DNA of 30,481 nucleotides from Candidatus Helarchaeota ASGARD archaeon Hel_GB_B (GCA_005191425.1 SUPR01000037.1:1-30481); one strand, 5' to 3'; counted from the stretch's first letter, positions 1 to 21,830 are shown. Translations and numbers: made by a program. Notes: generated from the sequence alone by a model not told the origin.

Positions 1-41
1 TTTAACCCGCCTGAAATCTTTCCCCTCTTTAAATATCTATC

Positions 42-263
42 TCATTTCCTCCATAAAATTACTCTTTTATCAGTACAATTTTCACATTTGAATCTTCTTA
101 TATATATTAATTCATCCCTTGTAAATACTTCTTCAAATCCATCGAAGCTCATTTCACACTTACAAACAGGACAATTTGGTAATAATTCTCCTCTAATAGA
201 TGTTTCTAATTCTCTATAATACTCCTCTAATCCTTTTGGAATTGCCATTTTACTCATTGACAA
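42..263 (-). CDS. Small hypothetical zinc-ribbon protein (73 aa)
   Basis: Two Cys pairs, CPVC and CENC, about 25 residues apart; protein-like composition; no family recognised. Confidence 0.6.
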   Translation of the reverse strand: MSMSKMAIPKGLEEYYRELETSIRGELLPNCPVCKCEMSFDGFEEVFTRDELIYIRRFKCENCTDKRVILWRK

Positions 264-440
264 TATTATTGCTATTCATTCTTTTTTATTTTTATGTAAA
301 AAAAAATTGATAATTTACTCAATTATTCTTAAATTTCAATTCATTTAAAAACAAAATCAATGCCATAAAAAATTAATTGGTGCTCCCGTCCTTGTTAAAA
401 ATATCGTCTTCCAAATTAAAACATTATTTATTGTAATAAA

Positions 441-470
441 TTAAAGAAAATTAAAGAAAATTAAAGAAAA
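441..470. repeat. Tandem repeat (TTAAAGAAAA) x3
   Basis: Three exact 10-bp units read directly, just downstream of the NifU-like gene stop. Confidence 0.9.
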
Positions 471-479
471 AATAAACAA

Positions 480-728
480 TTACATTATATTTTCTACATA
501 TTTTACTTCGGGTATTCTGGCTTTTAATAATCTTTCTATCCCATTCTTCAAAGTCAGTGTTGAATACATGCAACCTGCGCAATGCCCTGTTAATCTCACT
601 CTTACAACTCCATCTACAATTTCCACTAATTCTACATCTCCACCATCTGCCTGAAGACTAGGTCGAATTTCATCAAGTGCTTTCTTTACTTCTTCTTCCA
701 TTTCATCACACCTTTCAAATTTGTGCAA
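480..728 (-). CDS. NifU/NfuA C-terminal-domain Fe-S cluster carrier protein
   Basis: IRPSLQADGGDVELV, VRLTGHCAGC (CxxC) and TLKNGIERLLK match the NifU-C/Nfu domain pattern. Confidence 0.92.
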   Translation of the reverse strand: MHKFERCDEMEEEVKKALDEIRPSLQADGGDVELVEIVDGVVRVRLTGHCAGCMYSTLTLKNGIERLLKARIPEVKYVENIM

Positions 729-789
729 TAATTAATAATTATTTTCTTAAAAGTCATTTAGTCTTTCTATTTATCCTTTATAAATTATT

Positions 790-1335
790 AGGTAAGTTAT
801 TTCAAATTCCATTACCCTTTTAAATTTTTCTTATTTCGATAAATTTAAAGCATTTATTTCTCATATTATTTTTAAAAAGTTATTTTCATTAATTTTTATT
901 TTTCCTAACTTAATTTCGTCTGGTTTATTTAATAAATCAGATTTTTATTCTAACTTATTGATTGATTATCTGTTTCTAATTTTCAAAATAATTAATAAAA
1001 TATATCGATAAATCAAATAAATTTTCAATAATAAATCAGCAAAAATATTCCATTTATTCAATTATCTTGGAAGTTAAATTCTCTTATTAAAGAATTCTCT
1101 ACAAAATTTTCTATTTTTTATAAATTCTTTCTCCAATTCGTCAATATTCATCCTATTTATTTTTTATAACAATATGAATAATTATTACCTACGTATTTCA
1201 AATTATGAACCAATTTTACTATTGTTTAAACGATAATCGTATAATAATTAAACTGATTTCAAGATTATTATTGATTTTAATCGATATTTCACTTAAATTA
1301 CTTAATTTAATTACACTTCAATATTCATATCCTAT
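790..1335 (-). pseudogene. Possible decayed gene relic
   Basis: No ORF of 60 aa or more in about 600 bp, but protein-like fragments (MNIDELEKEFIK, DLLNKPDEIKLGKIKINENNFLKII, KLSNLSEISIKINNNLEIS) interrupted by stops and frameshifts; duplicated AGGA..ATGAATATTGA start motif. Confidence 0.25.
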
Positions 1336-1382
1336 ATTAAATAATATCATAATTGTTAAATGTATCTTCGTAAATTATTAAT

Positions 1383-2015
1383 TTGATGCGAAAATTAAAG
1401 TTAACTGAATATATATTAATAATCAATTTTGTGGTATACATAATACTCTCAATTTTATGTTTTAATCCACTCATTATCTCAAATGATGTATTAATTTGGG
1501 TCGCTCAATCTAATTATATGATTTATTACCATTTTTTATATTATGAGTTTTTCACTGCAATTTTCGTACATTTAAACCTGGCGCATATACTCAGTAATTC
1601 GCTATTTCTATTGATTTTTGGATATCGCTGTGAAGAACTTTTTTCTAAACGAGATTATTCAATAATCTATATTGTATCCGGCTTGATAGGAAATATACTT
1701 TCTTTATTTTTAGGGTTATATTCTATTTCTGGCGGGTCCTCAGGTGCAATTCTAGGCATTTTTTCAGCAATTCTCTATGCTCTTAGTGTAAAGGAAAAAC
1801 GAGCTTTTAAATCCTTTATTTTTATTGGACTACTTTTTTTAATTTTTATAGGGGCACAATATGGAGTAAACCCAATTAGTCATTGGACCGGGTTTATTGT
1901 AGGTTTAATTCTGGGAAGATATTTATTTAAAAAATCAGAGACTAATCGTAATAAAAAAATTATTTCTAAGAATGAATCGAAATATAAGAAAAAGATAATT
2001 TTTAAAAACAAATAA
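1383..2015 (+). CDS. Rhomboid family intramembrane serine protease
   Basis: About six hydrophobic segments; FVHLNLAHILSN, catalytic GSSG and SHWTGF (catalytic His) motifs. Confidence 0.9.
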   Translation: MMRKLKLTEYILIINFVVYIILSILCFNPLIISNDVLIWVAQSNYMIYYHFLYYEFFTAIFVHLNLAHILSNSLFLLIFGYRCEELFSKRDYSIIYIVSGLIGNILSLFLGLYSISGGSSGAILGIFSAILYALSVKEKRAFKSFIFIGLLFLIFIGAQYGVNPISHWTGFIVGLILGRYLFKKSETNRNKKIISKNESKYKKKIIFKNK

Positions 2016-2080
2016 AGAAAATTTTATGAATGTCTTTATTAGGTTTTACTTTAATTAAATAATAATTTGAGGATATATTA

Positions 2081-3436
2081 ATGTCAAAAGTTCATCCAAT
2101 TGAATTCAGATATTTCACGGAAAAAATGAGAAACATTTTTACTGAAGAGACCAAACTTCAAAAATGGCTAGATGTTGAAGCAGCACTAGCCCGAGCACAC
2201 GCTAAATTAGGGGATATACCTAAATCTGCCGCCGATGAAATTACCAAAAAAGCTAATGTAAAATATGTTAAACTCCAGCGAGTAAAAGAAATTGAAAATC
2301 AAATTCACCATGATTTAATGGCTATGGTTAAAGCATTAACAGAAGTTTGCGATTCTAATGCAGGCGAATACGTCCATTTTGGAGCAACAAGCTATGATAT
2401 CGAAGATACTGCAACCGCTCTACAATTTAAAGACGCAATAAATGTAATTGAAAATAATATGAAATCTCTTTTAAAAACACTGATTATGCTCGCTGAGAAA
2501 CATAAAAATACAATTACAATAGGGCGTACCCATGGCCAACATGCTCTACCAACTACCTATGGTATGAAATTTGCAATTTGGGCTTCAGAATTATTTAGAC
2601 ATTTAAATCGCTTGGAACAAATCAAACCCAGAATTCTAGTGGGTAAAATGAGCGGCGCTGTTGGCACTATGGCAAGTTTTGGTGATAAAGGGTTCCAAAT
2701 TCAAGAACTTGTAATGAATGATCTAGGCCTTAAACCTGTCATGATATCCAACCAAATCGTCCAACGCGACCGCCATGCTGAAATTTTATTATTACTTGCA
2801 CTCATTTCTAGTACTCTCGATAAAATCGCACGCGAAATAAGGAACTTATCCCGTACTGAAATTGCTGAAATATCTGAACACTTCAAATCTTCTCAAGTTG
2901 GATCTTCCACAATGCCTCATAAACGCAACCCACATAAGTCCGAACGTATCTGCGGACTCGCAAGAATCATTAAGTCAAATGTATTTCCTGCACTTGAAAA
3001 TATCTCACTTGAACATGAACGAGACCTGACTAACTCCGCACCTGAACGGATAATTATCCCTGAATCTTTTATCCTCCTTGATTATATGCTCGCTCAAATT
3101 AATTCTATACTTCAAGGCTTGGTCTTTAATTTCAAAAATATCCAAAATAACTTGAACAAGACTCAAGGCCTTATTATGGCCGAAAATATAATGCTTAAAT
3201 TAACTCAAAAAGGTATGGGTAGACAATCTGCCCATGAAATTCTCCGCAAATGCGCTATGATTTCTTATCAACAAAATATCCCTTTTAAAACTATTTTACT
3301 CCAGGATAACTCTTTAAAAAATTTTCTTAAACCTGATGAACTCGATAAATGGCTCGATCCTAATAATTATCTCGGACTTTCCTCTAAAATTGTCCAAAAT
3401 GTTATTAATACAATTAATAAATTTCTTGAGGCTTGA
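2081..3436 (+). CDS. purB: Adenylosuccinate lyase
   Basis: Fumarase-superfamily signature GSSTMPHKRNP, GRTHGQHA and VHFGATSYD; GAGGA Shine-Dalgarno upstream; adjacent to purM. Confidence 0.97.
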   Translation: MSKVHPIEFRYFTEKMRNIFTEETKLQKWLDVEAALARAHAKLGDIPKSAADEITKKANVKYVKLQRVKEIENQIHHDLMAMVKALTEVCDSNAGEYVHFGATSYDIEDTATALQFKDAINVIENNMKSLLKTLIMLAEKHKNTITIGRTHGQHALPTTYGMKFAIWASELFRHLNRLEQIKPRILVGKMSGAVGTMASFGDKGFQIQELVMNDLGLKPVMISNQIVQRDRHAEILLLLALISSTLDKIAREIRNLSRTEIAEISEHFKSSQVGSSTMPHKRNPHKSERICGLARIIKSNVFPALENISLEHERDLTNSAPERIIIPESFILLDYMLAQINSILQGLVFNFKNIQNNLNKTQGLIMAENIMLKLTQKGMGRQSAHEILRKCAMISYQQNIPFKTILLQDNSLKNFLKPDELDKWLDPNNYLGLSSKIVQNVINTINKFLEA

Positions 3437-3441
3437 TCTTT

Positions 3442-4545
3442 ATGTCTGACCAAAATACCCCTAATAATGACCAATTCACTTATGCTAAAAGTGGTGTCGA
3501 TATTAATGCCCAAAAATCAGCACATAAAATCATTGGCGAACTTATAACTAAAACATATCTATTTAGACAAGGTAAATTTGGAGAAATTATCGGTGAATAC
3601 GGTCATTATGCTGGCTTAATTGATATTGGTAATGAGTTATGTCTTGCAATGCATGTAGATGGCGTAGGCACTAAAGTAATGATAGCTCAAATGATGAATA
3701 AATATGATACAATCGGAATTGACCTTATTGCTATGCACGCAAATGACCTCATTTGTATGGGCGCCGAACCTGTTGCTCTCGAAGATTATCTTGCTATTGA
3801 GACCGTTAACAATGATGTTATCTATCAAATCATGAAAGGACTTGTTGAAGGCGCTAAACAAGCCCAAATGGCTATAATTGGCGGCGAAACTGCCATTATG
3901 CCAGACATCATTAAAGGCACATCCCCCGGAAACGGCTTAGACCTATCTGGAATGAGCATCGGCGTTGTTAATAAAAAAAATGTAATTACTGGGTCTAATA
4001 TTAAAATAAACGATACTATAATCGGTATTATGAGTTCAGGTATCCATTCTAATGGATATACTCTTGCTAGAAAAGCTTTTTTTGATCTTGCTAAATTGTC
4101 CCCTTTTGATCCACTTCCAAATTATCCTGATTTAATTGTCGGTAATGAATTATTAAAACCTACTAAAATTTATGTCCAACCTATTTTGAGCTTATTAAAA
4201 AAATTCAATGATAAAATTCACGGGCTCGCTCATATCACAGGCGGAGCTTTTACTAAATTAAATCGCCTTAGACCTCATGGACATGATTTTGGCTTCCTAC
4301 TTAACAATCTCCCAAAAGCACCCCCAATCTTTAAGGAAATACAAAATATAACCAATATTTCTGATAAAGAAATGTATAAAACCTTTAATATGGGCATCGG
4401 TTTCTGTATTATTGCTGACCCTTCCATACAAAACGAAATCATAAATCTACTCGATAATTTTAATTTCTCCTCTCTTATCATCGGAAAAATCATTAAATCT
4501 AATAAAATTATTTTGCATTTGAATGAAAATAAAATCTTTTTATAA
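3442..4545 (+). CDS. purM: Phosphoribosylformylglycinamidine cyclo-ligase (AIR synthetase)
   Basis: YAKSGVDI, DGVGTK, GGETA, SSGIHSNGY, HITGG and FNMGIG motifs. ATG at 3442 preferred over the track's TTG at 3433. Confidence 0.97.
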   Translation: MSDQNTPNNDQFTYAKSGVDINAQKSAHKIIGELITKTYLFRQGKFGEIIGEYGHYAGLIDIGNELCLAMHVDGVGTKVMIAQMMNKYDTIGIDLIAMHANDLICMGAEPVALEDYLAIETVNNDVIYQIMKGLVEGAKQAQMAIIGGETAIMPDIIKGTSPGNGLDLSGMSIGVVNKKNVITGSNIKINDTIIGIMSSGIHSNGYTLARKAFFDLAKLSPFDPLPNYPDLIVGNELLKPTKIYVQPILSLLKKFNDKIHGLAHITGGAFTKLNRLRPHGHDFGFLLNNLPKAPPIFKEIQNITNISDKEMYKTFNMGIGFCIIADPSIQNEIINLLDNFNFSSLIIGKIIKSNKIILHLNENKIFL

Positions 4546-4887
4546 TTTGAGTCCTCTATTATATCACAAGTCTAATTACAGGGAAAATGATGACCAAGTT
4601 TATACTTAGCAAATTTACTTGCGTTGAGGAAATTAAAAGCCCCCTGATTCCCTATATTCCTATACTTTTAATTTTTTGAATTCTATCCTTTTTACTTCTT
4701 CCCCTCTATCCCAACATTTACCAAACCTTTTTTTCCCAAATTAATACATTACGTTCTTTTAATTTTTTATCCTAATTAACTTGATCTATACATATTTTTT
4801 TATCTATTTTTCTGTTCAAAAAAATCGTTCAATGCTTAACTATTGATTTGGTTTGAACTTAACTATTGACTAATTTTTAAAAATAGA

Positions 4888-4917
4888 CTAAATAAAAAAG
4901 AATGAAAATAAAAAATA
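4888..4917 (-). terminator. Putative oligo-T terminator for the minus-strand radical SAM gene
   Basis: Minus-strand T-rich tract (TTTTTTATTTTCATTCTTTTTTATTT) about 40-70 nt after the stop codon; archaeal terminators are oligo-T rich. Confidence 0.4.
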
Positions 4918-4955
4918 GTTTGAACTCTATTTTAATAATATTTTTCAATTTCTAA

Positions 4956-6632
4956 TTATGACGTTTCTATTTTGGGTGGTTCTGCCTTGACTTTCTCTTC
5001 TTTTGGCTTCTCTTCAATTGAATGGTACGTAAATAATATGTTCTCAATTCTTTCTCTGTGTAATGTATTCATAGCACAAAATGGTACTCCATATACTTTA
5101 CCATCCCTAGGATCAACCCATCCGTAATGTACCAAACATCTTGAAACTCGCTCAACATCAAAATTATAGCCATCTTGGAAATGCATTAATCCTATAATCA
5201 TTGCACCCGCACCTTTACTCTGCACAAAATTTGCTGACGCATCCCATCTTGAATTTAATACCATGTCCAGGAAAAACTTCGATTTTGATAATATACCCTC
5301 TAATTTCATTGTCGATAACATGTCTAAACCCATTCTAACTTTGATTAATGTATCGTCTACTTTATTATATACTTTATCTATGTTCAGGCCAATTTCTCCT
5401 AAACCAAAATTCCCAAGTAATTTCTCAAATATTTTTGGCTTTTCTCCATATCGTCTCTCTTTTAATATATTATACCACTTTTTCGATTTCTTCATGAACG
5501 ATTTGATATTAAATACCCTATGCGTCCCTGTCATCTTTTTTGTACCATCGGGTTGATCTTCAATAAATAAGAAATTTCCAAAACCACAAATTGGATTACA
5601 TGTAAACTCTACTACTTGATTATTTGAAGCCGCCCATCCAATTATTTTAGCAAAATGTGAGATCGCTGTTAAAGGATATAACACACCTATTTCTCCATTT
5701 GTAAAGTCTTGTAACGCCTTTGCAACATGGGATGATGTTATCCTCAATTTTAACCTGTCTTCTTCACTTATTCTACCTACAAGTGCTACTGGCTGATAGA
5801 ATACCCCTACAACTACATCATTGTTGTCTATTGCAAACTGTAAAATATCGCCTATTTGATGGTCATTGATACCTTTTGCCACTGTTGGAACTAAAATCAC
5901 CCCTGAAAATCCCAATTTTCTGCAGTTCTCTATTAATTGTTTTTTAAATTTGAAAATCGGTGCACCTCTCGTCTTCTCATAAACATCCTCCGTAACTCCG
6001 TCAAATTGTAGATAAATCGATTTGGCACCTGCATCTAAACACGCTTTTAAATAATTTATGTCTTTTGCTAACCTTATCCCATTTGTAGTAATCTGTGGAT
6101 GGACATAACCCATTTTTACACATTCCCTAATAATATCAGGCAGGTCATCCCTTAATGTAGGCTCGCCTCCACTATACATAGCTACCAATGGTGGCTGAGG
6201 TTGGATTTCACTAAAGTGTTTGTAAACTTGAATGATCTCATCATATGTAGGTTCAATTTTCTCAAGATTTGGGTTCACATTTGCATTTGCAAAGCAAATA
6301 GGACAACGCAAATTGCATCTGTATGTTATATCCATCAAAACAATCGCTGGAGAACTCTTATGAAATTCACAAATACCACAATCATATGGACACCCCTCTT
6401 TTATTGGTTTTTCAGGGTGCCATCGTTTTGCATCAGAGTCCATCCTAAACGGTTGCAACCATTTAAACCAATCCGAATCAATTGACACAATATCTTTAAA
6501 TGTACCATGCTTATCACAAGTTTTAACCATATAAACTTTACCATCTTCTTCGATATAATCAGCATCAATTCTAGCTTTACATTCAGGACAAATACTCTTA
6601 GTAGATTGAATAATTGTTGCCATATACTTCAT
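4956..6632 (-). CDS. Radical SAM protein of the tetraether lipid synthase (Tes/GDGT-MAS, MJ0619) family, paralog 1
   Basis: N-terminal CPEC..TCDKHG rubredoxin-like site, GCPYDCGIC auxiliary cluster motif, CNLRCPIC radical SAM motif, GGEPT, YLQFDG, and C-terminal MHFQDGYNFDVERVSRCLVHY..PFCAMNTLHR; colinear with MJ0619 as I recall it. Confidence 0.85.
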   Translation of the reverse strand: MKYMATIIQSTKSICPECKARIDADYIEEDGKVYMVKTCDKHGTFKDIVSIDSDWFKWLQPFRMDSDAKRWHPEKPIKEGCPYDCGICEFHKSSPAIVLMDITYRCNLRCPICFANANVNPNLEKIEPTYDEIIQVYKHFSEIQPQPPLVAMYSGGEPTLRDDLPDIIRECVKMGYVHPQITTNGIRLAKDINYLKACLDAGAKSIYLQFDGVTEDVYEKTRGAPIFKFKKQLIENCRKLGFSGVILVPTVAKGINDHQIGDILQFAIDNNDVVVGVFYQPVALVGRISEEDRLKLRITSSHVAKALQDFTNGEIGVLYPLTAISHFAKIIGWAASNNQVVEFTCNPICGFGNFLFIEDQPDGTKKMTGTHRVFNIKSFMKKSKKWYNILKERRYGEKPKIFEKLLGNFGLGEIGLNIDKVYNKVDDTLIKVRMGLDMLSTMKLEGILSKSKFFLDMVLNSRWDASANFVQSKGAGAMIIGLMHFQDGYNFDVERVSRCLVHYGWVDPRDGKVYGVPFCAMNTLHRERIENILFTYHSIEEKPKEEKVKAEPPKIETS

Positions 6633-7008
6633 CTCATTATTTCAAATTTTTTTGCTTTTATAAGACCAAAATTATGTCTTTTTTTCAATCATATGATTCT
6701 AACATTTATAAATCTATACTTTATAGTTGGAAAATAAAAAAATAAACGCATTTATTTAGAAAATTTAATCTAAGAAAAATAATTGGTAAATATAACTTAA
6801 ATTAATAAAAATCTCTATGAAAAAATTATTTTTAATGTGAGTAATTAATTTAAAATTAAAACATATTTAATCAATATTTAAAACCAATTTATCTATTTCT
6901 ATTATATTAACTATTTTTTATAATAATAAAATCAAATTTATTTTTCAATTTTTTCAAGAATTTGGCAATGACAAAAGAATTTAGAAATTAAAATTACAAA
7001 TTAAATAT

Positions 7009-7638
7009 TTAATGCCTTTTATCTTTGTACCAATCAAACATATCGCGACGTAGTTTGCACATTTCTCCTGTTTGGTTATGGTAAAACACAATTCCTTCTG
7101 CAAATTCTTTAGTACCATGTCGTCTTCTAATTTCTAAGCTCCAGAGTTCTTTAAATACATTACTAACAATGTCATAAAGTTCCAAGTCATTTTTATTGGT
7201 GAAATCAAGGTTATTCCAAAATTTATAGGTATTTTTTTTTCTCAATCGAGTAAAGGGGTACCAGACATGTTGTTTTAAATGCAATGGATTATTATTAATT
7301 TTAGGGCCACAGAGTTCTCCGAAGAACTGTCCTTTACTATTTGGAGTAAAGTAATTATTATCTATTGCATATTGAATACCTTCATAGAAATATCCGTATC
7401 CTTTTTTAAAGAAGGGGATATGATTTTTTCTATTATAAATTGCTACAATTTTTTCTCCATCACAGATGACACTTACATTTGTTCCATCGATTTTCTCAAC
7501 AGCTTGGACAAAATCGGGATTAAATATCCAGCGATATTTTTCTACAATCTTTGGTGTGCAAACGTATTGACCATTTATTGTTTCTCTAATAAAAGGTGAT
7601 TCTAATTTTGGGAAATCTTGTGCATTAATCATCTTCAT
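7009..7638 (-). CDS. Stand-alone ATP-dependent RNA ligase-like nucleotidyltransferase (C12orf29/RLIG1/DUF5565- or Rnl2-like)
   Basis: Motif I EKIDGTN (adenylated Lys), motif III FGELCGPKIN, motif IV EGIV, motif V CKLRRD; 209 aa with no OB domain. Confidence 0.75.
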   Translation of the reverse strand: MKMINAQDFPKLESPFIRETINGQYVCTPKIVEKYRWIFNPDFVQAVEKIDGTNVSVICDGEKIVAIYNRKNHIPFFKKGYGYFYEGIQYAIDNNYFTPNSKGQFFGELCGPKINNNPLHLKQHVWYPFTRLRKKNTYKFWNNLDFTNKNDLELYDIVSNVFKELWSLEIRRRHGTKEFAEGIVFYHNQTGEMCKLRRDMFDWYKDKRH

Positions 7639-7745
7639 CTTTATTAATTTTGAGATTTTATTCTAATAATTTTATTTAATAAATATATTCAAAAAATTTT
7701 TATTTAAACTAAAAGTATTGTAATAGATTTATGGTCTAATAATAC

Positions 7746-7894
7746 TTCATAATCTAAATATATTTTCAATTTCAAATTTAGTATTTTTATGACCACGAAT
7801 TATTTTATTAAATGAAAAGTTATTTTAATATTTTATGAACCAGAAATATGTATTTTAATAGTCATAAAAAAAATTATTAAGTTTAAAGTCATAA
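7746..7894. promoter_or_regulatory. Array of TTATGA(A/C) heptamers in both orientations, in the divergent AT-rich intergenic region
   Basis: Copies at 7746-7752 (-), 7787-7793 (+), 7833-7839 (+), 7861-7867 (-) and 7888-7894 (-); 10-bp inverted repeat TTTTTATGAC (7784-7793) / GTCATAAAAA (7861-7870); TATTTTAATA repeated at 7821 and 7851. Confidence 0.35.
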
Positions 7895-8052
7895 TAGTTT
7901 ATTAAAAAAATATCTTATTGTGGTGATTGTCTTAAATCTATTTTGAAAATAAAAAGAATCAATAAGATCAAAAAAGGTAATATGGGTTTGTAATAAATCA
8001 ATAATTTTTAAAAAAGAGGCAGACTATTCAAATATAAAGGAAATGAAAAAAA

Positions 8053-9699
8053 ATGGTATATGAAAGAAAAACAAAATCTATTTGTCCTGAATGTAAAAAA
8101 ACTATTGATGCAGTAATTGTTCAAGAAGGAGACAAAATTTATATGCACAAGACATGTGAAGAGCATGGTTCTTTTAGTGATATAATAGCAACTGATGTTG
8201 AAACATATGTAGAAGCTCAGAAATATAGGAAATTTGGCTTTCCCCACAAAGATCCACAAATGACAATAAAAGATGGCTGTCCACATGATTGTGGGATGTG
8301 TCCAAACCATAAGTCAGCGACTACATGTGCAATGGTAGATGTAACAAACAGGTGCAACTTAAAGTGTCCTATCTGCTATGCAAACGCGGATACCGCGGGT
8401 TACATTGTAGAACCGCCTTTTGAAGATATCATAAGAATCTATAAGCATTTTAGGAGTTTAAAACCGGTGCCTCCAGTTGTTGCAATGTATGCGGGTGGTG
8501 AGCCAACTATGAGAGATGATTTACCTGAGATCACGAGGGAGTTAGTAAAAATGGGGTTCAAGCAAATTCAAGTAGCTACAAATGGAATTAGACTTGCAAA
8601 TGATATCAATTATTTTAAGAGATTAATGGACGCAGGAGCTAATGTATTATATTTACAATTTGATGGTATAGAAAGCGATACATGGATAAAAACTAGAGGT
8701 GTAGATTTATTCGAGAAAAAGAAGCAGGTAATAGAAAATTGCCGTAAAATTGGATTTAAAGGCGTTTGTTTAGTACCTACAATAGCCAGAGGTGTGAACT
8801 TTCCCCATGAAATAGGAAATATCTTGCAATTTGCTGCCGATAATGTGGACGTAGTGTCCGGGGTGATGTTTCAGCCGGTTGCTCTTTGCGGACGAATAGA
8901 GCAAAAAGATCTTTTTGATTTACGAGTTACTACCTATGATGTGTTAAATGAGATTGACAAATATACAAATAATGTAATGAGACCTTGGCGACCATTTCCT
9001 GCGTTTCAAAATCTAATGCGATTAATAGCATGGTGGGGTAGTTTAAGTGGTAAACACATAGAGCATGTGGAATTTACACCGAATCCTCAATGTGGTTTTG
9101 TCACTTTTATGCATATTGAGGAACAAGATGGGCCAAATAAAATAGTTGGTTTTAATGACATTATTGATATTGATGAAACAATAAAATATTGCGATCAACA
9201 AATGGAAAAGATCGATAATATGAAGGAGATTTCATTTTTCCAGAATTTAACGTTAACTGAATTTGGCGAAAAAGTAGGAAAAATGTTAGACAGCAGTTTA
9301 AATTGGTTAAATAAAAGAAGAGTCCAAATAGAAGGCTTATTTGAAGCAATAAAATTATTAAAAGATCCACTCAGTACATCAGCAATAATGTTGTATAAAA
9401 TGTTGTTAAATCAAAGTTGGGACAATACGAGGGATTTTCTTGTAAAAGGGAATAATATATATGTAGGTATTATGCACTTTCAAGATGAATATGATTTAGA
9501 TGTAGAACGAGTGAGTCAATGTGTTGTTCATTTTGGATATATAGACCCGAAGGATGACAGAGTAAAGCAAGTACCATTTTGTACTATGAATAATTTACAT
9601 AGACCTAGAATAGAGCGGGCATTAGCTATAAAATATGGTGGGATGAAACAACAACCAGAAAAAGAAAAAATAGTAGCAGAACCTCCTAAAATAAACTAA
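8053..9699 (+). CDS. Radical SAM protein of the tetraether lipid synthase (Tes/GDGT-MAS, MJ0619) family, paralog 2
   Basis: CPEC..TCEEHG, GCPHDCGMCPNHKS, CNLKCPIC, AGGEPT, YLQFDG, MHFQDEYDLDVERVSQCVVHF..PFCTMNNLHR; aligns end to end with paralog 1. Confidence 0.85.
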   Translation: MVYERKTKSICPECKKTIDAVIVQEGDKIYMHKTCEEHGSFSDIIATDVETYVEAQKYRKFGFPHKDPQMTIKDGCPHDCGMCPNHKSATTCAMVDVTNRCNLKCPICYANADTAGYIVEPPFEDIIRIYKHFRSLKPVPPVVAMYAGGEPTMRDDLPEITRELVKMGFKQIQVATNGIRLANDINYFKRLMDAGANVLYLQFDGIESDTWIKTRGVDLFEKKKQVIENCRKIGFKGVCLVPTIARGVNFPHEIGNILQFAADNVDVVSGVMFQPVALCGRIEQKDLFDLRVTTYDVLNEIDKYTNNVMRPWRPFPAFQNLMRLIAWWGSLSGKHIEHVEFTPNPQCGFVTFMHIEEQDGPNKIVGFNDIIDIDETIKYCDQQMEKIDNMKEISFFQNLTLTEFGEKVGKMLDSSLNWLNKRRVQIEGLFEAIKLLKDPLSTSAIMLYKMLLNQSWDNTRDFLVKGNNIYVGIMHFQDEYDLDVERVSQCVVHFGYIDPKDDRVKQVPFCTMNNLHRPRIERALAIKYGGMKQQPEKEKIVAEPPKIN

Positions 9700-9730
9700 A
9701 TTGTGGCTAAAATTTCATAATTTAATATAT

Positions 9731-9751
9731 TTCTTTTTCCATTTTTCTTTT
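9731..9751 (+). terminator. Putative oligo-T terminator for radical SAM paralog 2
   Basis: TTCTTTTTCCATTTTTCTTTT tract about 30 nt after the stop codon. Confidence 0.4.
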
Positions 9752-10110
9752 AATCTTATAAAATTATATTAATTAATTTTTAATCTCAATTATTTTTAAA
9801 ATGGTCATTAGAATATTGCTAAATTTCGTTAATAAAATTCTATTTTAATTTTAAAAACTAATTTTGATTAAATAGGTTATTAATATTCTTAAATTGGAGT
9901 TATCTTAGTATATTTGTCTGATGTAATGTTAAATTATTGGATTGAAATAATTTTTGAAGGGGAGTGAAAAATAGGGGAAAAAGTAATATAAGTAGTATTA
10001 ATGTAATATTAATTTAAAATAGGTGGTAAATAAAAGAGAATTGAGTATAGATTTACAAATATAGTTAAACAGATGAATTTTTTATTATTTTTCAATTTAG
10101 ATATCAACGA

Positions 10111-11091
10111 TCAAGGTCTATTCTTTAGATAATATTTTCCGTCAATATTTTCAACTAGGTTTTTATCAATGAGGTCTTGAAGGTATTTTAATGCCCATAT
10201 AAAATCTGTTCTCATCAATTTATAGAACCTATAATGACCGATATGAGTCCGTTCATACATAAGTGGGACAATTTTCGAGATTTTTAGGGGTCCTTTGAGT
10301 TTAAGGGCAATAAGAATTCTTTTTTCGGCTCGTTGAATACTATCGAGAAAATTGAGATAAATAGGATATTCTTCGCACCAGGGATGAGGACGGTAGCCAT
10401 GTCCACGGAAAACGAATCGGATTGAATGGTCGAAAATTTTATGAACAGAGTTTATGATATCTGAGATAGAAGTTTGAAGATAAGGAGTAAATGGAATGGT
10501 GTCTCCTGTGAACATTATTTTGGGAGGTGCATAATAAATACAGATAGAATCGAGTGAATGTCCTGGAGTATGTATAATTTCTAGTTTTACATTTCCACAT
10601 GAAATAATTTGTCCATCATATAATGGTTTAACAGATTTTGCGGGTTTGATCCTACCTTGATAAAAATGATAACCGAGTTTTATTATGTTTTGAATAATAG
10701 GGTGTCTGATAATCTTTTTATTAAGAAATGGAATGGCGTTTTCTAGGAATTCCAAGAATTCAAATTTTTTAATATCAAAATCATTAAAATCTTTGGTCAA
10801 TGGTACAATAGCTGATGGATGAGCAAGGACTTCACAATTGAATATTTCTTGAAAAAGTCCTACATTAGCTGAATGGTCGTGGTGTGTATGCGTTAAAATT
10901 ATCCTATCAATCTTATCAATACCAAGTGTCTTGAGGATTTTAAATAAATTTCTTTTAGTGAGAGTATAATATGTCCCGGTATCTATTATTGTATTAATTT
11001 CATCTTTAATGAAATAAACATTTGCATTGAGCATGGCAGTGCCAGATGGAATAAACATTGTAAAATATTTATTTATTCTATATAACTTCAT
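10111..11091 (-). CDS. Metallo-beta-lactamase fold hydrolase with a probable C-terminal winged-helix extension
   Basis: IIDTG, THTHHDH (HxHxDH), HTPGHS, FTGD and RGHG motifs; C-terminal RILIALKLKGPLKISKIV helix-turn-helix-like segment. Confidence 0.9.
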   Translation of the reverse strand: MKLYRINKYFTMFIPSGTAMLNANVYFIKDEINTIIDTGTYYTLTKRNLFKILKTLGIDKIDRIILTHTHHDHSANVGLFQEIFNCEVLAHPSAIVPLTKDFNDFDIKKFEFLEFLENAIPFLNKKIIRHPIIQNIIKLGYHFYQGRIKPAKSVKPLYDGQIISCGNVKLEIIHTPGHSLDSICIYYAPPKIMFTGDTIPFTPYLQTSISDIINSVHKIFDHSIRFVFRGHGYRPHPWCEEYPIYLNFLDSIQRAEKRILIALKLKGPLKISKIVPLMYERTHIGHYRFYKLMRTDFIWALKYLQDLIDKNLVENIDGKYYLKNRP

Positions 11092-11118
11092 TGTAGACTA
11101 ACATTTGACCTTTTTATT

Positions 11119-11667
11119 TTATTTTTTTAAGAGTATTCCATAATAAACCATAATATTAATAAATTTTTGAATTAAAAACTTTATTTTATCATAGATCTCA
11201 TAATATACATTAATATCAGTCCCGAATGGGTCTGGGAGAATAATATTTTCGTTCACTAATTCAGCTAAAAGAAATGATTTATCACGTAAATTTTTAGGGA
11301 TTAAATGCAGGTGGCTTTTTTCCATGACAATGATAATATCCGATTCAACAAGTAAATGAAAATTTTCTTTATTTTTTAAATATGTAGGCTTAAATGTATC
11401 AATTAAAGATTTTTTAAATCCCTCTTTAATTAAAATTTCTTTAGTGAATTCGTGCAAATTAGAGTTTTTAAAAAGGACTGCGCCTGAATTAACAACAAAT
11501 TTGTCATAGTTCCTTGTTTGTTCTCGAATCATTTTCTTAAATAAAAATTCTGCCATAACTGACCGAATTATATTACCTGAACAAATGAATAGAATTGAGA
11601 TAGTTTCTTTATTTTTCAAATTTTCTAAAATGTTTGTCATTTTGATCTTATGAAATTTAATAAACAT
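11119..11667 (-). CDS. Low-molecular-weight protein tyrosine/arginine phosphatase family protein
   Basis: P-loop ILFICSGNIIRS (Cx5R), DIIIVME and LPDPFG (general-acid Asp). The true start may be the ATG at 11640. Confidence 0.85.
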   Translation of the reverse strand: MFIKFHKIKMTNILENLKNKETISILFICSGNIIRSVMAEFLFKKMIREQTRNYDKFVVNSGAVLFKNSNLHEFTKEILIKEGFKKSLIDTFKPTYLKNKENFHLLVESDIIIVMEKSHLHLIPKNLRDKSFLLAELVNENIILPDPFGTDINVYYEIYDKIKFLIQKFINIMVYYGILLKK

Positions 11668-11848
11668 TGAATTAATAATAAATTAATATTGCTTATTTAA
11701 AATATTTGGAACTCAATTATCATAATGATTAAATTATGAAAATGGGGAATTTCTCTAATAGTTAATCATACTAAATTTAGATATTCATTTTTCATTTAAC
11801 AAGCAATTAAATATTAATAAAACATCAAAAGAAATTCTTTGGTTTATC

Positions 11849-12166
11849 ATGAATAACAATTTATTGGTAAAATCAAATTCAAATTCCAATATTGTCCATG
11901 ATATTTATTCAGAAAATTATGATATCGTAAATATTCAAATAAAAATTTATAAAACATCAAATTTAATAACGAAAATGAATTTAAAAGAATTTATTGTAGA
12001 ATTTGGTAAAAATTGTTTTATTTCAGAGAATAACGAATTATCAAATATTATTATAGAAGTGCACAAAAGAGTCCTTGGAATTATAAATGCTATTTATAAA
12101 AATTATGGTAAAAATGATGATATAATATACCTCGTGCAAGAATTAGATGATTTATACAGATTTTGA
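11849..12166 (+). CDS. Hypothetical protein (105 aa, Asn/Ile-rich)
   Basis: Open frame with ATG in an otherwise non-coding gap; no recognisable motif. Confidence 0.5.
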   Translation: MNNNLLVKSNSNSNIVHDIYSENYDIVNIQIKIYKTSNLITKMNLKEFIVEFGKNCFISENNELSNIIIEVHKRVLGIINAIYKNYGKNDDIIYLVQELDDLYRF

Positions 12167-12316
12167 CTTTATTGCGGAGAAAAATTGACCAATAATTTTA
12201 TCTTTTACGAAAATTGTAATAAAAAGTTATTTTAATAAAAATCTTAAAATAAACGATAAATATTTAAATTGTTAGATTTATATTTAAATAAGAAATGGAG
12301 TGCAAGGATTAAACCG

Positions 12317-12778
12317 ATGAGAATATTTGAAGTTGGTATTATTAGGAATGAAGCAGTTGTCTTTTTAGATGAATATTATAATGGAAAAAGAAATGAACAT
12401 GAAATTCAAGATAAAGAAATATTTCGCGGTGCTCTAATAAATTTAGCAAAAAGAGAGATAGAATATACCGATGAGCTAAAATCTTTTGAAATATTCAATT
12501 ATCATGTATCAATGATAGGCAAGAAGAATGGTAATAAAAGTAAATTTATTTTTTATTTAATTTCTGATGTTAATTTAGATTTAAATATGAAGAAAAACAA
12601 GTTAAATCAAATAATTTCTGAATTTTTTAAGAGTTTTCCACCCCCCAGGTGCTATAATCCAAATACAGAGATTTTTAATAAATTTTTAGATAATACTAAT
12701 AAAATAGTAGGTGATTTAGGAATAGATGCACCTGATAGGCTTATTCATGCTTGGGGTATAAATCATCAAAAGAGATAA
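12317..12778 (+). CDS. Hypothetical protein with a longin-like fold pattern
   Basis: ATG at 12317 with AAGGA upstream (the track starts at TTG 12269). Pattern by eye: beta-beta (IFEVGII, VVFL), helix (FRGALINLAK), three strands ending FIFYLISD, and two helices (KLNQIISEFFKSF, EIFNKFLDNTNKIV). CDS is likely real; the fold call is an inference. Confidence 0.55.
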   Translation: MRIFEVGIIRNEAVVFLDEYYNGKRNEHEIQDKEIFRGALINLAKREIEYTDELKSFEIFNYHVSMIGKKNGNKSKFIFYLISDVNLDLNMKKNKLNQIISEFFKSFPPPRCYNPNTEIFNKFLDNTNKIVGDLGIDAPDRLIHAWGINHQKR

Positions 12779-12884
12779 TTGAAATAATTAAAGCGATTCA
12801 AATCAAATTTAGTGATTTATTTAATTTTATTTTTATTATTAGTGAATAAATAATAAATAAAAAAGAAAAAGAGTCAGGGCTATA

Positions 12885-13070
12885 TTATATTGCGAATTTT
12901 TTTAATTCTCTATCACAGCGGGGGCATCTTGAAAATTTTATTATCCATTTTTGTAGTTCTGATTTATGAAAAAAAGTAAAGCAATAAGGGCATTGGACCG
13001 GATTGTCTAAAATTTCTTTTCTACATATATAACAAATTTTTGGTTCTGAATTTTCAGTTATAAAGAGCAC
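12885..13070 (-). CDS. Small RING-finger-like protein (61 aa)
   Basis: CYIC..CPYCFTFFHKSELQKW..CPRC, with the conserved RING Trp before the last CxxC; GTG start. Confidence 0.75.
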   Translation of the reverse strand: MLFITENSEPKICYICRKEILDNPVQCPYCFTFFHKSELQKWIIKFSRCPRCDRELKKFAI

Positions 13071-13091
13071 CTCAAAAAATTGATTTGATTA

Positions 13092-14399
13092 TTATATATT
13101 AAGATCTTCAAGAATTGTTTGCGCGCATAATAAAGCAGATGCATGTGCAATATCGCCACCGATACCCGGGCCATTATAAGAATCGCCAGAAAAATAGAGT
13201 CCATCAATTGGGCTTTTAACTGAAATTCTTTTATTTCGATGAGTTGAAGTATAAACAGTAGAACCATCAACAACCGGCATAACAATTGGTCTTTTCCAGC
13301 TGATGTTTTCATTAAAGCCCGGGAACATTTTATTTAACATAGTATAGATGTTTTGAATGATTTTATCTGTTTCTTGTTTATTATTTATAATAGAATTTGG
13401 TAAGGGTTGTAAAATGGTGAAGAGTTGTTCATTGTTTGGAGCGACATTAGGGTCCAGGTTAGATGTAAAACAAGACATTGTAAATGGATTATAGGTAGTT
13501 ATCAGTCCATCAATATCTGAGACCTTTCGTTTAAGTCCGAAATCAATGGAAATACCGCAAGTAGGAGTTGTGTTTTTAGCCATATTAATTAAAGATTCTG
13601 GTAAAAGATTATTATCAATTAGAGACAGTGCATCATTTATAGGAATTGCTAAAATTATGTTTTCCGCTTTAATAGTATCATTATTAATCAAGACTCCTTC
13701 CACTTTATTATTATTTATTATTATCTTATCTATTTTTGATTTGGTCTGGATCTCGCCATTATCTTGAATTTTTTTAACTAATTCATCAATTATAAATTTC
13801 CAGCCGCCACTAGGATAGCTGGAACCTTTACCTGCATTAATAGCTTTTTTGATTCCATCAAGAAATTCCCCGGTAGACAATTTATCAATTTCATTATATG
13901 AAACGCAAAGTAAATCTGTTATAATTGTAATTAATTTCATAGTATTTTTAGAGAGATTTTTATCTTTTAACCAATCTTTAATACTAAGATTTAATAAATC
14001 ATCATTGAGTTTAATTGATAAAGCTCCTGCCAGGATCTGAGACAATTGTTCTTTTTCATTTTCATTCAATAATTTAGTATTTTGTATAGCGGAAATACTT
14101 AACGGAAGGTCATTCCATTCGTTATCCATAAACAGCTTACCTTCTCCATAATCAATGATTTGTAATTTTTGTTTGAATTGTTTTTTGAAAATTGTTGGAA
14201 TTACACCTTTTTTCGAGAACCTTATTGCATGAATACCATAATCAACGATATAACCTGGTTTATATTCAAATGAATTAGCTCTTCCGCCCAATATATTCTT
14301 TTTTTCAAAGATCTTAACTTTTAGTCCTTTATTTGCTAAAATTGCCCCAGATATTAGTCCTCCAAAACCACCACCAACAATCAATACATCGAAAGTCAA
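13092..14399 (-). CDS. FAD-dependent oxidoreductase, phytoene dehydrogenase-like (COG1233-type)
   Basis: N-terminal dinucleotide-binding VLIVGGGFGGL..FEK..LGGRA; YPSGG; C-terminal GLYFSGD..GPG; GGAGA Shine-Dalgarno before a TTG start. Confidence 0.85.
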   Translation of the reverse strand: MTFDVLIVGGGFGGLISGAILANKGLKVKIFEKKNILGGRANSFEYKPGYIVDYGIHAIRFSKKGVIPTIFKKQFKQKLQIIDYGEGKLFMDNEWNDLPLSISAIQNTKLLNENEKEQLSQILAGALSIKLNDDLLNLSIKDWLKDKNLSKNTMKLITIITDLLCVSYNEIDKLSTGEFLDGIKKAINAGKGSSYPSGGWKFIIDELVKKIQDNGEIQTKSKIDKIIINNNKVEGVLINNDTIKAENIILAIPINDALSLIDNNLLPESLINMAKNTTPTCGISIDFGLKRKVSDIDGLITTYNPFTMSCFTSNLDPNVAPNNEQLFTILQPLPNSIINNKQETDKIIQNIYTMLNKMFPGFNENISWKRPIVMPVVDGSTVYTSTHRNKRISVKSPIDGLYFSGDSYNGPGIGGDIAHASALLCAQTILEDLNI

Positions 14400-14434
14400 A
14401 ATTAATACATCTCCATTTTCTTTATTTTCTATAA

Positions 14435-14680
14435 TTATTCATTATATGTTAGGTCATTTAAAATCTTTTTAAGAAGGTCTATTTTTACCAGAATTTTATC
14501 AAGCCCAATTTTAAAAATTATATTTTCAAAAGAAGCGATAGCTCTTTTATCACCCCTTTTTTTAACGATTTCAAGTGCATTTCTATAAAGTTCTTGAGCT
14601 TCATGAAATTGTTGGTCTTTAATAAACCTTCGAGCTCTTATACGAAGAGTGCGTAGTTCATAATCAACAGTATCGTCCAT
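14435..14680 (-). CDS. Small helical protein with a single TPR-like hairpin (81 aa)
   Basis: ARRFIKDQQFHEAQELYRNALEIVKKRGD fits the TPR helix A/B consensus; AGGAG Shine-Dalgarno upstream. Confidence 0.7.
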   Translation of the reverse strand: MDDTVDYELRTLRIRARRFIKDQQFHEAQELYRNALEIVKKRGDKRAIASFENIIFKIGLDKILVKIDLLKKILNDLTYNE

Positions 14681-14731
14681 AATATGCTACTCCTATCATA
14701 ACTACACAAAAAATTATTGATATTATGGTTT

Positions 14732-15469
14732 TTAATTATTATTAATTTTGTGTTTTAATTCTTCAATTTTCTGTTTAAACTTTTCAACTTTATCTGATTC
14801 TTTTAATTCTTCAGAAATTTTAAGAGCGTTTTCTAAAGCCCAGATTGCATCTTGTAATTCACCGTCCTCTTCTAACTCCTTTGCAAGGACTATTGATTTT
14901 CTCCTTGCTGCAAGTTTCTGTGATATCGGCACTTCTTGGTCCACTTTTAAGCCAATTTTATCAATCAAAGTACTTTCAATTTCTTGAAAAATATCTACGA
15001 ACCGACCAGGACTATCTTTATCCCAGTTTTTTAATGTTGGACTTATGTCCTCTGGTTTTCCTGCCAAGACTCCTTTAGCTTCAGATGAAAATTGGACGAC
15101 TGGCTTTTTTGGAAACTTGTGAAAATCAATTAGAAATCGAAAATGATCGTAGGGACTCGCAGAAATATAAACCACGCCCTTAGTTGCTTTTTTTAGTTCT
15201 AAATTATAATCCACCTGAAAATTATTACGTAATTCTATTAACTGTTCAATTAATGATTCCTTAAAATTGGGCTGGTCCTTAATATTTTTTTCTTTTAAGG
15301 TTTGAATTTTGTTTCTCAAATCGGTTAACTCATCGTTTAGGTTTTTTTTCAAAGTATCAAATTCAGGTTGCGTTAGTTCTTTATTTTTTAACTTATTTTG
15401 TAGGTCAAATACCTTATTTTCAATCTCAAAATATTTCTCTTCCAAATCTTTCAATTTTTGGTCGTACAT
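14732..15469 (-). CDS. Coiled coil + UBC/UEV/RWD-like domain without Cys + TPR-like hairpin (245 aa)
   Basis: Heptad-rich N-terminus (residues 1-65); FLIDFHKFPKKPVVQF resembles the E2/RWD [YF]PxxxP motif; LKNWD resembles the E2 LxxW; C-terminal AKELEEDGELQDAIWALENALKISEEL hairpin; no cysteine in the protein. Confidence 0.6.
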   Translation of the reverse strand: MYDQKLKDLEEKYFEIENKVFDLQNKLKNKELTQPEFDTLKKNLNDELTDLRNKIQTLKEKNIKDQPNFKESLIEQLIELRNNFQVDYNLELKKATKGVVYISASPYDHFRFLIDFHKFPKKPVVQFSSEAKGVLAGKPEDISPTLKNWDKDSPGRFVDIFQEIESTLIDKIGLKVDQEVPISQKLAARRKSIVLAKELEEDGELQDAIWALENALKISEELKESDKVEKFKQKIEELKHKINNN

Positions 15470-15790
15470 ATAGTTCCCCAGTCTTTTTAAAATTTCAAAA
15501 TATATGGTTTCACTTTATATTCTAAATTGACAAAGATGTTAATAAAAATTAGTGTAAAAGTCAAATAAATAAATTCTTACTTTAAAATTAATGAATATAT
15601 TTTACGTTAAAAATTAATTACGAAACAAATTTCAAATGATTATTTAAGCTAAAAAGATAATATAATAAACAAAAGTTTTTAAAATACCAGCGAAAAATTT
15701 TCAGAATGATTACAATATCAATTTTTTTTAATCGTGACCACTTTATCAATTTTATAATTTCCGTAAATATATGCAGTCAGTCTATTTTCA

Positions 15791-15819
15791 TTTATAATTA
15801 TAGTGGTTATAATTATAAA
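15791..15819. repeat. Perfect 12-bp inverted repeat with a 5-bp spacer
   Basis: TTTATAATTATA-GTGGT-TATAATTATAAA, read directly in the 715-bp divergent intergenic region. Confidence 0.8.
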
Positions 15820-16047
15820 GATACAAGATTTTCAGTTTAATATATTAAAAATTCTCCATTTAATTGGAATTTATTCAATAATTATATATCCAAATTGATT
15901 ATTACTATAATTAAAACATTTATATGCAATATATATGAAGAATATTATTGATTTTTGGGGTTGAAAAATGAAAAAAGACAAATTAAGGAAAATATTAAAC
16001 TTTTTCATTTAAAATCTTTATTAATCCACATTAGGAAATCATTTTTT

Positions 16048-16081
16048 AAATATTAAATCAAATATTAAATCAAATATTAAA
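16048..16081. repeat. Tandem repeat (AAATATTAAATC) x about 2.8
   Basis: Read directly, about 100 bp upstream of the 193-aa ORF. Confidence 0.85.
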
Positions 16082-16184
16082 AGAATTTTAGAACAAAAGT
16101 TAAAAAGTTGAAAAAATTTTTTTTAAATTTAATAACGAAAATAAATAAGTTTGCAAAAAAAGTATTTAGTTAATGATTTAAGAA

Positions 16185-16766
16185 TTGAGTAAAAGAAAAA
16201 TGCCGGAACAATTTGCGAAATTTATAATATCTATTGCGGAAAATACAAAATTTATCAGGTTAGATATGATACCCTTTTTTGAGGATTATATCAAGAAGCA
16301 CCCGACACCCTTAAAAAGGTTTAAGCGAGCATATAAAATATCAAGGTCAAAATCAAATTTGAAAATTGTAAAATCAAATGTCGCTGCTTATTTAATAAAG
16401 AAGGGTAATGATCTTTTTACTGATTGGTTAAATACTATGTTTTATTTCAGAAAAACTGATTTAAGTGTGGAAATAAAAGGAGGGGGGACTTCAATGGACG
16501 TAGTAATAAATATTAAATATATTTATAGAGAGGATGAAATAAAAGTTATGGAAAGAGTAATTAAAGATTATGAATTAAACAAAAATGACATAACAATAGA
16601 AGATATCTGTTTATTATTATTAAGTGAAGCTATATTGTGTATGCAGACTTTTTTTAATGAAATAATTGGTTATAAATTTTCATTAATGGTACAAAATGAT
16701 GAAGTAGAAGTGTCTAAAAATAAAATTAATACTTATATAGAATTAGTAACTAGGTTATATTCGTAA
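16185..16766 (+). CDS. Hypothetical protein (193 aa)
   Basis: Long open frame with protein-like composition; start is TTG 16185 or ATG 16200; no motif recognised. Confidence 0.75.
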   Translation: MSKRKMPEQFAKFIISIAENTKFIRLDMIPFFEDYIKKHPTPLKRFKRAYKISRSKSNLKIVKSNVAAYLIKKGNDLFTDWLNTMFYFRKTDLSVEIKGGGTSMDVVINIKYIYREDEIKVMERVIKDYELNKNDITIEDICLLLLSEAILCMQTFFNEIIGYKFSLMVQNDEVEVSKNKINTYIELVTRLYS

Positions 16767-16803
16767 AAATTAAGTTTTAAAAAGGAATGGGAATTAAAAT
16801 TTG

Positions 16804-18579: not shown

Positions 18580-18730
18580 AAGGTACCACTAATCAATTAT
18601 TATTTAATAAATCCTTATTTAATATTTGATTTTTTATTAATGATATTTAATCAAATTTATTAATATAGTGTAGATTCAAAACATAATAAAATCATTTTAA
18701 ATAATTATATTCTTTTCTAATTGAACGATT

Positions 18731-19687: not shown

Positions 19688-19817
19688 AAAATTGCTTAAA
19701 ATTTATTTTCTAATGAAATTTTTGATATTTTATTATGATTTGATATTTAATTTAAAGCGAAACCAGTTTTATTAAAAAAATAAGAAAAAAAAATAAGAAT
19801 ACTTTTTAAAAAATAGT

Positions 19818-21701: not shown

Positions 21702-21830
21702 ATGAAAACCTTTTTTTAATTAAAAATTATAATTAAGAGTAAATATATGATATATTTCTTAATTAGACCTTAAATACCTATGGAATTGTTATAATTAAAA
21801 AAAAGAGATATATAATGGTTATTTAATTTA

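Follow-up and report, generated by a model that had tools for sequence, protein, structure and literature searches.

In this work, we provide evidence that a contig of the Asgard archaeon Candidatus Helarchaeota Hel_GB_B carries a sharp, position-bound switch of strand composition. The window, as we call the whole stretch of DNA analysed, is the 30,481-bp contig C115 (SUPR01000037.1) of the assembly G000 (3.54 Mb, 182 contigs, 28% GC). To the left of the switch the + strand is pyrimidine-rich at neutral sites, to the right it is purine-rich, and the change takes place between two divergent paralogous genes for radical SAM proteins (rSAM1 and rSAM2). The asymmetry is positional and ongoing, it is conserved in a sister species, and its polarity and form are those seen at another locus of the same genome that bears origin recognition boxes (ORB). 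We tentatively favour the reading that the window holds a candidate replication initiation site devoid of ORB boxes, with forks diverging at 6.9-7.8 kb.

Gene calls are ATG-started open reading frames (ORFs) of at least 120 aa in a fragmented assembly, with no curated annotation. For all ORFs, the mean coding-strand effect was subtracted from the third-position skew, and the resulting residual was expressed on the + strand. Neutral sites, as used for the cumulative GC skew, are the four-fold degenerate and intergenic positions. Two genomes served for comparison, namely G001, the sole congener used, and G005, a relative from another family of the same order.

A sharp switch of strand composition in the window

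The original prediction was a candidate replication origin at a mirror-image G/C skew flipping near 7.8 kb. The parts of the window around this site are the following:

1-6632: left arm, + strand pyrimidine-rich (C>G, T>A) at neutral sites regardless of gene direction
1383-2015 (+): rhomboid gene
2081-3436 (+): purB
3433-4545 (+): purM
4681-4800 (+): C-rich non-coding tract, C29:G2
4956-6632 (-): rSAM1, radical SAM gene with an HMPTM N-terminal zinc ribbon, G/A-rich at synonymous sites
6633-7008: AT-rich gap, 14% GC, one of two candidate switch positions, containing the minimum of the cumulative neutral-site skew (6955)
7009-7638 (-): RNA-ligase-family gene (PF09414) at the switch centre
7639-8052: AT-rich gap, 16% GC, upstream of rSAM2, containing a cluster of TTATGAC(C/T)-like repeats
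8053-9699 (+): rSAM2, paralogue of rSAM1, G/A-rich at synonymous sites
9901-10080 (+): G-rich non-coding tract, G35:C4
10111-11091 (-): metallo-beta-lactamase-fold (MBL) gene, C-rich on its coding strand (third-position skew -0.43) and obeying the right-arm bias
11119-11667 (-): low-molecular-weight phosphatase (LMWPc) gene
7009-22000: right arm, + strand purine-rich, strongly so to ~11 kb and weakly to ~22 kb

The hand counts given with the prediction for the two non-coding tracts were exact. Stretches of 120 nt that are this skewed occur in 16 of the 1,170 intergenic gaps of the genome, and two of the 16 lie in the window, with opposite signs. The C-rich tract, the sequence of which is not conserved in G001, can be read as neutral DNA at local mutational equilibrium. 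It had also been claimed correctly that the genes pointing toward the centre are C-rich on their coding strand: the third-position skew is -0.35 for purB, -0.53 for purM and -0.43 for the MBL gene, which places them in the lowest 0.4-1.7% of the 2,505 long ORFs, a set whose coding strands have a mean skew of +0.146 and thus an average excess of G. The four-fold sites of purM count C37:G2 and T64:A32; those of rSAM1, read on its coding (minus) strand, count G35:C10 and A86:T55. The asymmetry is one of purines versus pyrimidines: on the + strand, C and T are in excess left of the switch, G and A right of it.

The cumulative GC skew over neutral sites clearly showed a V-shaped global minimum at 6955, flat to ~7800. 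In 1-kb bins the neutral skew runs -0.37, -0.35, -0.40, -0.85, -0.40, -0.66 and -0.25, and then +0.31, +0.30, +0.36 and +0.60, with extremes at the switch of ~ -0.9 and +0.6 (~0.9 at the four-fold sites of purM). The switch announced near 7.8 kb is real, but its onset lies ~0.9 kb further left, and it covers the ligase gene and both flanking gaps. On the left arm, the corrected third-position residuals range from -0.1 to -0.6 for genes of either strand. The fading of the bias that had been noted with the prediction was also observed: on the right, the bias is strong as far as 11 kb, stays weakly positive up to ~22 kb and is mixed beyond, and the left arm is strong for ~10 kb, with a weaker continuation of the same sign through the adjoining contig C142, ~30 kb in total.

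The best change point within the window falls at 6632/7009 (permutation p ~0.007), a level of p<0.01 being reached in 6 of 87 contigs. The orientation-corrected jump, taken over three genes per side, is 0.81 and ranks second among 1,670 gaps, the first place (0.91) being held by contig C108. When the jump was calculated from neutral sites with 4-kb arms, the window ranked first of 8,557 positions (0.86 at C115:6751), followed by C9:4001 (0.72), C108:10751 (0.71) and C127:14001 (0.64).

The same gene order was found in GCA_054387055.1 (JBQSIZ010000298.1) and in ERZ27227322 (ENA), and in part in ERZ23491052, which rules out a misassembly. Over the central 1.5 kb, GCA_054387055.1 differs from the window by a single-nucleotide polymorphism, 7841 C to T, within one TATGAACC repeat. 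It follows from the same assembly that C142, reversed, adjoins the left end of the window, and the negative residuals continue there.

The bias stays in place when genes are inverted

The orthologous locus of G001 lies on two contigs, the ends of which overlap by 78 nt with 75 matches, and they were joined for the analysis. The resulting order is X(-), LMWPc(+), MBL(+), rSAM2(+), a 333-nt gap, rSAM1(-), purM(-), purB(-), rhomboid(-). Both rSAM genes are therefore inverted relative to the conserved flanks, being convergent in G001 and divergent in the window; each gene appears flipped in place about a shared central breakpoint. The G001 orthologues are located as follows:

L018, 125-1792: rSAM1, 85% amino-acid identity to that of the window
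L016, 4258-5895: rSAM2, 83% amino-acid identity to that of the window

The synonymous composition of both inverted genes is reversed. The G3:C3 ratio of rSAM1 is 106:49 in the window and 45:95 in G001, and its four-fold sites in G001 count G6:C30 and A77:T94 (vs. G35:C10 and A86:T55 in the window); for rSAM2, G3:C3 is 90:52 in the window and 53:85 in G001. The flanking genes have kept the sign of their skew. In the joined G001 locus, the neutral skew per kb runs from -0.18 to -0.54 and then from +0.19 to +0.45, with the switch within the 333-nt gap. Since the skew of the inverted genes is reversed, the switch has kept its syntenic position in the one relative compared. These results allow us to conclude that the bias is tied to the position and still at work, and that it regains equilibrium within the time over which the two congeners diverged.

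This disposes of the idea, raised together with the prediction, that transcription from the two outward-facing rSAM genes causes the skew: in G001 these genes face inward, and the switch persists. An inversion breakpoint at the site had been named as evidence against an origin, and such a breakpoint does exist, as the centre is common to both inversions that set the window apart from G001; the skew has re-equilibrated since, however, so the inversions do not explain the switch.

The ligase gene at the switch centre is small and bears a weak likeness to Rnl2. It is of mixed composition, its coding strand counting A28:T15 and C13:G1 at four-fold sites, and it was not found in G001, the genome of which is 93% complete. 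The gene may be a recent arrival.

Positional strand bias and upward jumps across the genome

Third-position residuals are spatially autocorrelated throughout G000, falling from 0.31 within 2 kb to ~0.1 at distances of 10-30 kb and to 0.05 at 40-60 kb. Neighbouring genes on opposite strands are anticorrelated in their coding-strand third-position skew (-0.33), divergent pairs (-0.36) as much as convergent ones (-0.31). Codon usage intrinsic to the genes and transcriptional read-through are thereby excluded as general explanations. The skew of intergenic DNA correlates with the residual of the genes beside it (r=0.33), and does so in each of the four orientation classes. Of 87 contigs, 25 have a mean residual significantly different from zero; the usual contig-level residual is ~0.08, as against a local amplitude of 0.4-0.9 at the switch. 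The same analysis of a 400-kb segment of G005 (G005:C5:60001-460000) revealed no positional strand bias, thus indicating that the method does not create these effects and that a strong positional bias is lineage-specific. A terminator-linked C enrichment is contradicted by the meta-profile downstream of 2,457 stop codons, where no C enrichment was seen. Genes lie slightly more often on the C-rich strand than on the other, which may be an operon artefact and is not used here as evidence.

The extreme jumps are directed upward only. By the three-gene measure, 12 jumps up and none down exceed 0.5, and the distribution of jumps has a skewness of +0.60 vs. 0.00 +/- 0.06 in shuffles. By the four-gene measure, counted as distinct loci, there are 4 up and 0 down above 0.5 and 9 vs. 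3 above 0.4, with parity below 0.3. Sharp upward jumps lacking sharp downward counterparts are as expected for fixed initiation sites combined with diffuse termination.

Other strong upward jumps, orientation-corrected or at neutral sites, were noted at ~4.0 kb of C9, ~13.3-14.0 kb of C127, ~31.5 kb of C95, ~20.7 kb of C93, ~4.2-5.5 kb of C105 and ~11.5 kb of C99. These six carry no ORB boxes and no common motif, and the gaps at 13 upward-jump loci have no enriched 8-10-mer in common. Jump sites were not significantly enriched at contig ends, and the autocorrelation of the residuals showed no sawtooth periodicity.

An ORB-box locus with the same signature

The intergenic gap C108:11969-12912 contains three ORB boxes of the form TCCAnnGGAAAT..GGG(A/G)G arranged around an AT-rich core. 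ORB boxes were searched for with a pattern and a position weight matrix (PWM) built from five boxes of C108 and its G001 orthologue. The boxes at C108:12.17-12.44 kb are the only strong PWM matches in the genome (27-29 bits, the next best reaching 20.8), and they are conserved in G001. In both G000 and G001, this locus shows an upward skew jump with a purine-rich + strand on the right-hand side; upward jumps are thereby calibrated as origin-like in this genome.

Further along the same contig, C108:27862-35934 (L047) bears a GINS51-like gene and, after it, a run of seven shikimate-pathway genes. Third positions become increasingly C-rich there toward the contig end (residual -0.1 to -0.5), as if a further upward jump lay just past the end of C108, ~25 kb from the ORB locus.

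Homologues of Orc1/Cdc6 (PF09079) are encoded three times in the genome, on C114, C182 and C151 only. A weaker upward transition lies 4-8 kb from the gene on C114, and the C182 and C151 contigs have no upward transition. Upstream of orc1/cdc6 on C182, the segment C182:49846-50111 holds the sole intergenic inverted CCAGAAAT pair of the genome (49915 + and 50025 -), and one of the copies is followed by AGGGAG, resembling a shortened ORB box. This segment is possibly an initiator-linked origin, although there is no skew jump there. The window contains CCAGAAAT in a single copy (chance expectation ~0.03). It resembles the C182 pair but, as a single copy, is too weak to be taken as an origin element.

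Other sequence features and neighbouring genes

The only spacer sequence conserved between the window and G001 is a candidate C/D box small RNA at 4578-4661 (+), just downstream of purM. It has ATGATGA after the 5' stem arm and CTGA before the 3' arm, and its terminal stem GGGAA/TTCCC is changed to GAGAA/TTCTC in G001, which amounts to two compensatory pairs; the candidate has no Rfam match, and Rfam and tRNA scans gave no matches elsewhere in the window.

The TTATGAC(C/T)-like repeats at 7729, 7787, 7835, 7861 and 7888 form a cluster that is unique in the genome. A similar pair of repeats lies in G001 ~220 nt upstream of rSAM2, far from the switch there, and because of this the cluster is probably a regulatory element of rSAM2. 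No 10-mer repeats were found in the two central gaps of the window. A scan for bacterial promoters and terminators gave shuffle level only and is irrelevant for archaea.

The two rSAM proteins share 46% amino-acid identity, and the HMPTM zinc ribbon in both is a Pfam domain associated with methanopterin-pterin methylation. Alignment of the downstream spacers of rSAM1 and rSAM2 revealed only a short G-rich patch, AGGGGAA-AAGTAA, in common. At the left end of the window there are two further genes:

42-263 and 480-728 (-): two small zinc-finger/NifU-like genes

An exact database look-up of the 82-aa NifU-like ORF returned no record. The left extension (C142 reversed; L051 1-8570) bears a gelsolin-domain gene, DZR zinc-ribbon genes and a TPR gene. 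At the C142-C115 junction, ~1.2 kb is missing from the G000 assembly, and a search for overlaps of the C115 contig ends found none.

Discussion

Two processes, replication and transcription, are established as causes of strand asymmetry. Because transcription is excluded at this locus and the signature equals that of the ORB-box locus, a site of diverging forks is the best reading of the switch. According to it, a fixed site within 6.9-7.8 kb would exert a strand-asymmetric mutation pressure outward in both directions, such that on each side the strand running 5' to 3' away from the centre turns G- and A-rich at neutral sites. Replication forks would diverge at this site, with a purine-rich leading strand, and the site would be an initiation site or zone of a type that has neither ORB boxes nor an adjacent orc1/cdc6 gene. 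Of the original proposal, the skew switch and its origin polarity have stood, and the rSAM genes are not the cause of the switch; that fork direction causes the asymmetry and that initiation takes place here is what we infer.

Several observations weigh against an origin. Archaeal origins of the ORB type carry repeated ORB or mini-ORB boxes, mostly in inverted arrangement, on both sides of an AT-rich unwinding element within gene-free DNA, and many of them, though not all, also have orc1/cdc6, whiP or cdt1 as an immediate neighbour. No ORB box was found in the window, where the best PWM scores (at most 14.9 bits) fall inside genes, and the G001 locus has no ORB match at 12 bits or above. In agreement with what had been stated beforehand, Pfam and NCBIfam scans of the window ORFs detected no initiator, and neither orc1/cdc6 nor another replication gene is present in the window. 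The central spacers of the window and G001 gave no alignment above shuffles. The gap upstream of rSAM2 had been described as extremely AT-rich, which proved overstated: the two central gaps, with 14% and 16% GC, occupy the 8th and 21st percentile among the intergenic sequences, nothing unusual for a genome of 28% GC. The TTATGAC(C/T) cluster was rejected as an origin element, as it accompanies the upstream region of rSAM2 and not the switch. The amplitude drops over the first 10-15 kb, and past 22 kb the bias of the right arm is mixed, unlike a simple fork polarity on the replichore scale. The enriched bases are G and A, not the classical G and T, which implies a transversion bias. Finally, G000 has 4-9 strong upward jumps, and four is, to our knowledge, the largest number of origins shown on one archaeal chromosome.

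Much of this would suit a boundary of some position-bound, strand-asymmetric process of mutation or repair that has nothing to do with initiation, such as a centromere-like or segregation site, a nucleoid-domain boundary or a recombination hot spot. The lack of an origin sequence feature at the centre, the cusp-like shape and rapid decay of the bias, and the transversion bias needed for a purine/pyrimidine asymmetry are all compatible with it, and the centre is, moreover, a breakpoint common to two inversions. We know of no such alternative position-bound process in archaea. A precedent from another domain is provided by the centromeres of Candida albicans, which show skew jumps unrelated to replication (PMC3459929). 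Against such a boundary, the same signature is found at the C108 locus with its ORB boxes, and the exclusion of transcription here leaves replication of the two established causes. We hold this explanation to be the main rival, possible though rather unlikely. The switch might also be a relic junction of a past inversion or translocation that joined segments with opposite skews acquired elsewhere. The locus is indeed rearranged relative to G001, with both rSAM segments inverted about the centre and the ligase gene present only in the window. However, the re-equilibration of the inverted genes within the divergence of the congeners argues against this, as a relic would have faded; the switch lies at the same point in both arrangements, its local amplitude is far above the usual contig-level residual, there is no partner jump of opposite sign in the window, and sharp downward partners are lacking genome-wide. 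A relic is thus highly improbable.

Transcription-associated mutation or codon-usage selection, acting through the divergent rSAM genes or through read-through from the inward purBM and LMWPc-MBL genes, has in its favour that coding strands are G-rich on average and that the rSAM genes point outward, and read-through from the conserved flanks is conceivable for this single locus. Yet purB, purM and the MBL gene point inward and still obey the positional bias, the rSAM genes are inward in G001 with the sign of the skew reversed, the strongest bias is in non-coding DNA, and the equal anticorrelation of divergent and convergent neighbours shows that read-through is not the general cause. Furthermore, to produce this sign, transcription would have to enrich the non-template strand in C/T, contrary to the bias that is known to accompany it. 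This makes transcription or codon usage a very improbable source of the switch. Chance is hard to reconcile with the permutation test and the ranks. A mirror image dating from an ancient inverted duplication that gave rise to rSAM1 and rSAM2 would accord with their being inverted paralogues, the nucleotide arms of which are ~71% complementary; but at their divergence synonymous sites are saturated, and the bias covers non-homologous flanks for 10-30 kb. Neither chance nor such a mirror image can be given any appreciable credence. An inverted duplication that included the flanks was rejected, as no inverted repeat links 4681-4800 with 9901-10080 and only the rSAM coding regions pair.

A broader picture can be drawn, which we consider doubtful: the chromosome would have several discrete initiation sites (the 4-9 strong upward jumps of the assembled part) devoid of ORB boxes and neighbouring initiator genes, with diffuse termination, a eukaryote-like skew pattern in which sharp rises are followed by gradual declines, and an unusually strong purine bias beside each site (up to ~0.9 at neutral sites), the window containing the strongest of them.

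Asgard archaea are the closest known archaeal relatives of eukaryotes. Should the window contain an origin, an Asgard chromosome would have at least one initiation site with neither ORB boxes nor a linked initiator gene, and exact coordinates would be at hand for experimental testing. Whatever its cause, the locus represents a clean natural experiment in which two inverted genes have fully reversed their synonymous base bias, and this full reversal indicates that strand-asymmetric mutation in this lineage is strong, fast and position-bound. Such a mutation bias bears on codon-usage analyses, on origin prediction and on the reading of composition anomalies in these genomes.

Comparison with known systems

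No replication origin mapped by experiment in an Asgard archaeon came up in our literature search; for Odinarchaeum there is only a guess, based on where the cumulative skew is lowest (PMC9246712). The C. albicans centromeres mentioned above are like the window in that a sharp and local jump of the skew marks a special site of the chromosome.

A close parallel is the ORB locus of C108. Just as in the window, the jump there is upward, from C to G, of similar size and strongest near the centre, no orc1/cdc6 gene is adjacent, and the switch is conserved in G001. The two differ in that C108 has three ORB boxes conserved in G001, whereas the window has none and its centre lacks conserved sequence.

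In Sulfolobus/Saccharolobus, each of the origins oriC1-3 is defined by a separate initiator and motif (PMC3607249; PMC4010727). Several origins with origin-specific recognition elements are thus found on a single chromosome in these archaea, and G000 has three Orc1/Cdc6 homologues. Unlike the candidate site in the window, those origins were mapped experimentally, have defined repeats and lie mostly beside initiator genes.

The borders of human N-domains and yeast origins show sharp upward skew jumps followed by gradual declines (PMC3320577; PMC3459929). G000 resembles them in having sharp upward jumps, gradual declines and no equally sharp downward jumps. It differs in that the upward excess is limited to a few extreme loci (4-9), with no periodic sawtooth, and in the large neutral-site amplitude in the window, which reaches ~0.9 at the four-fold sites of purM.

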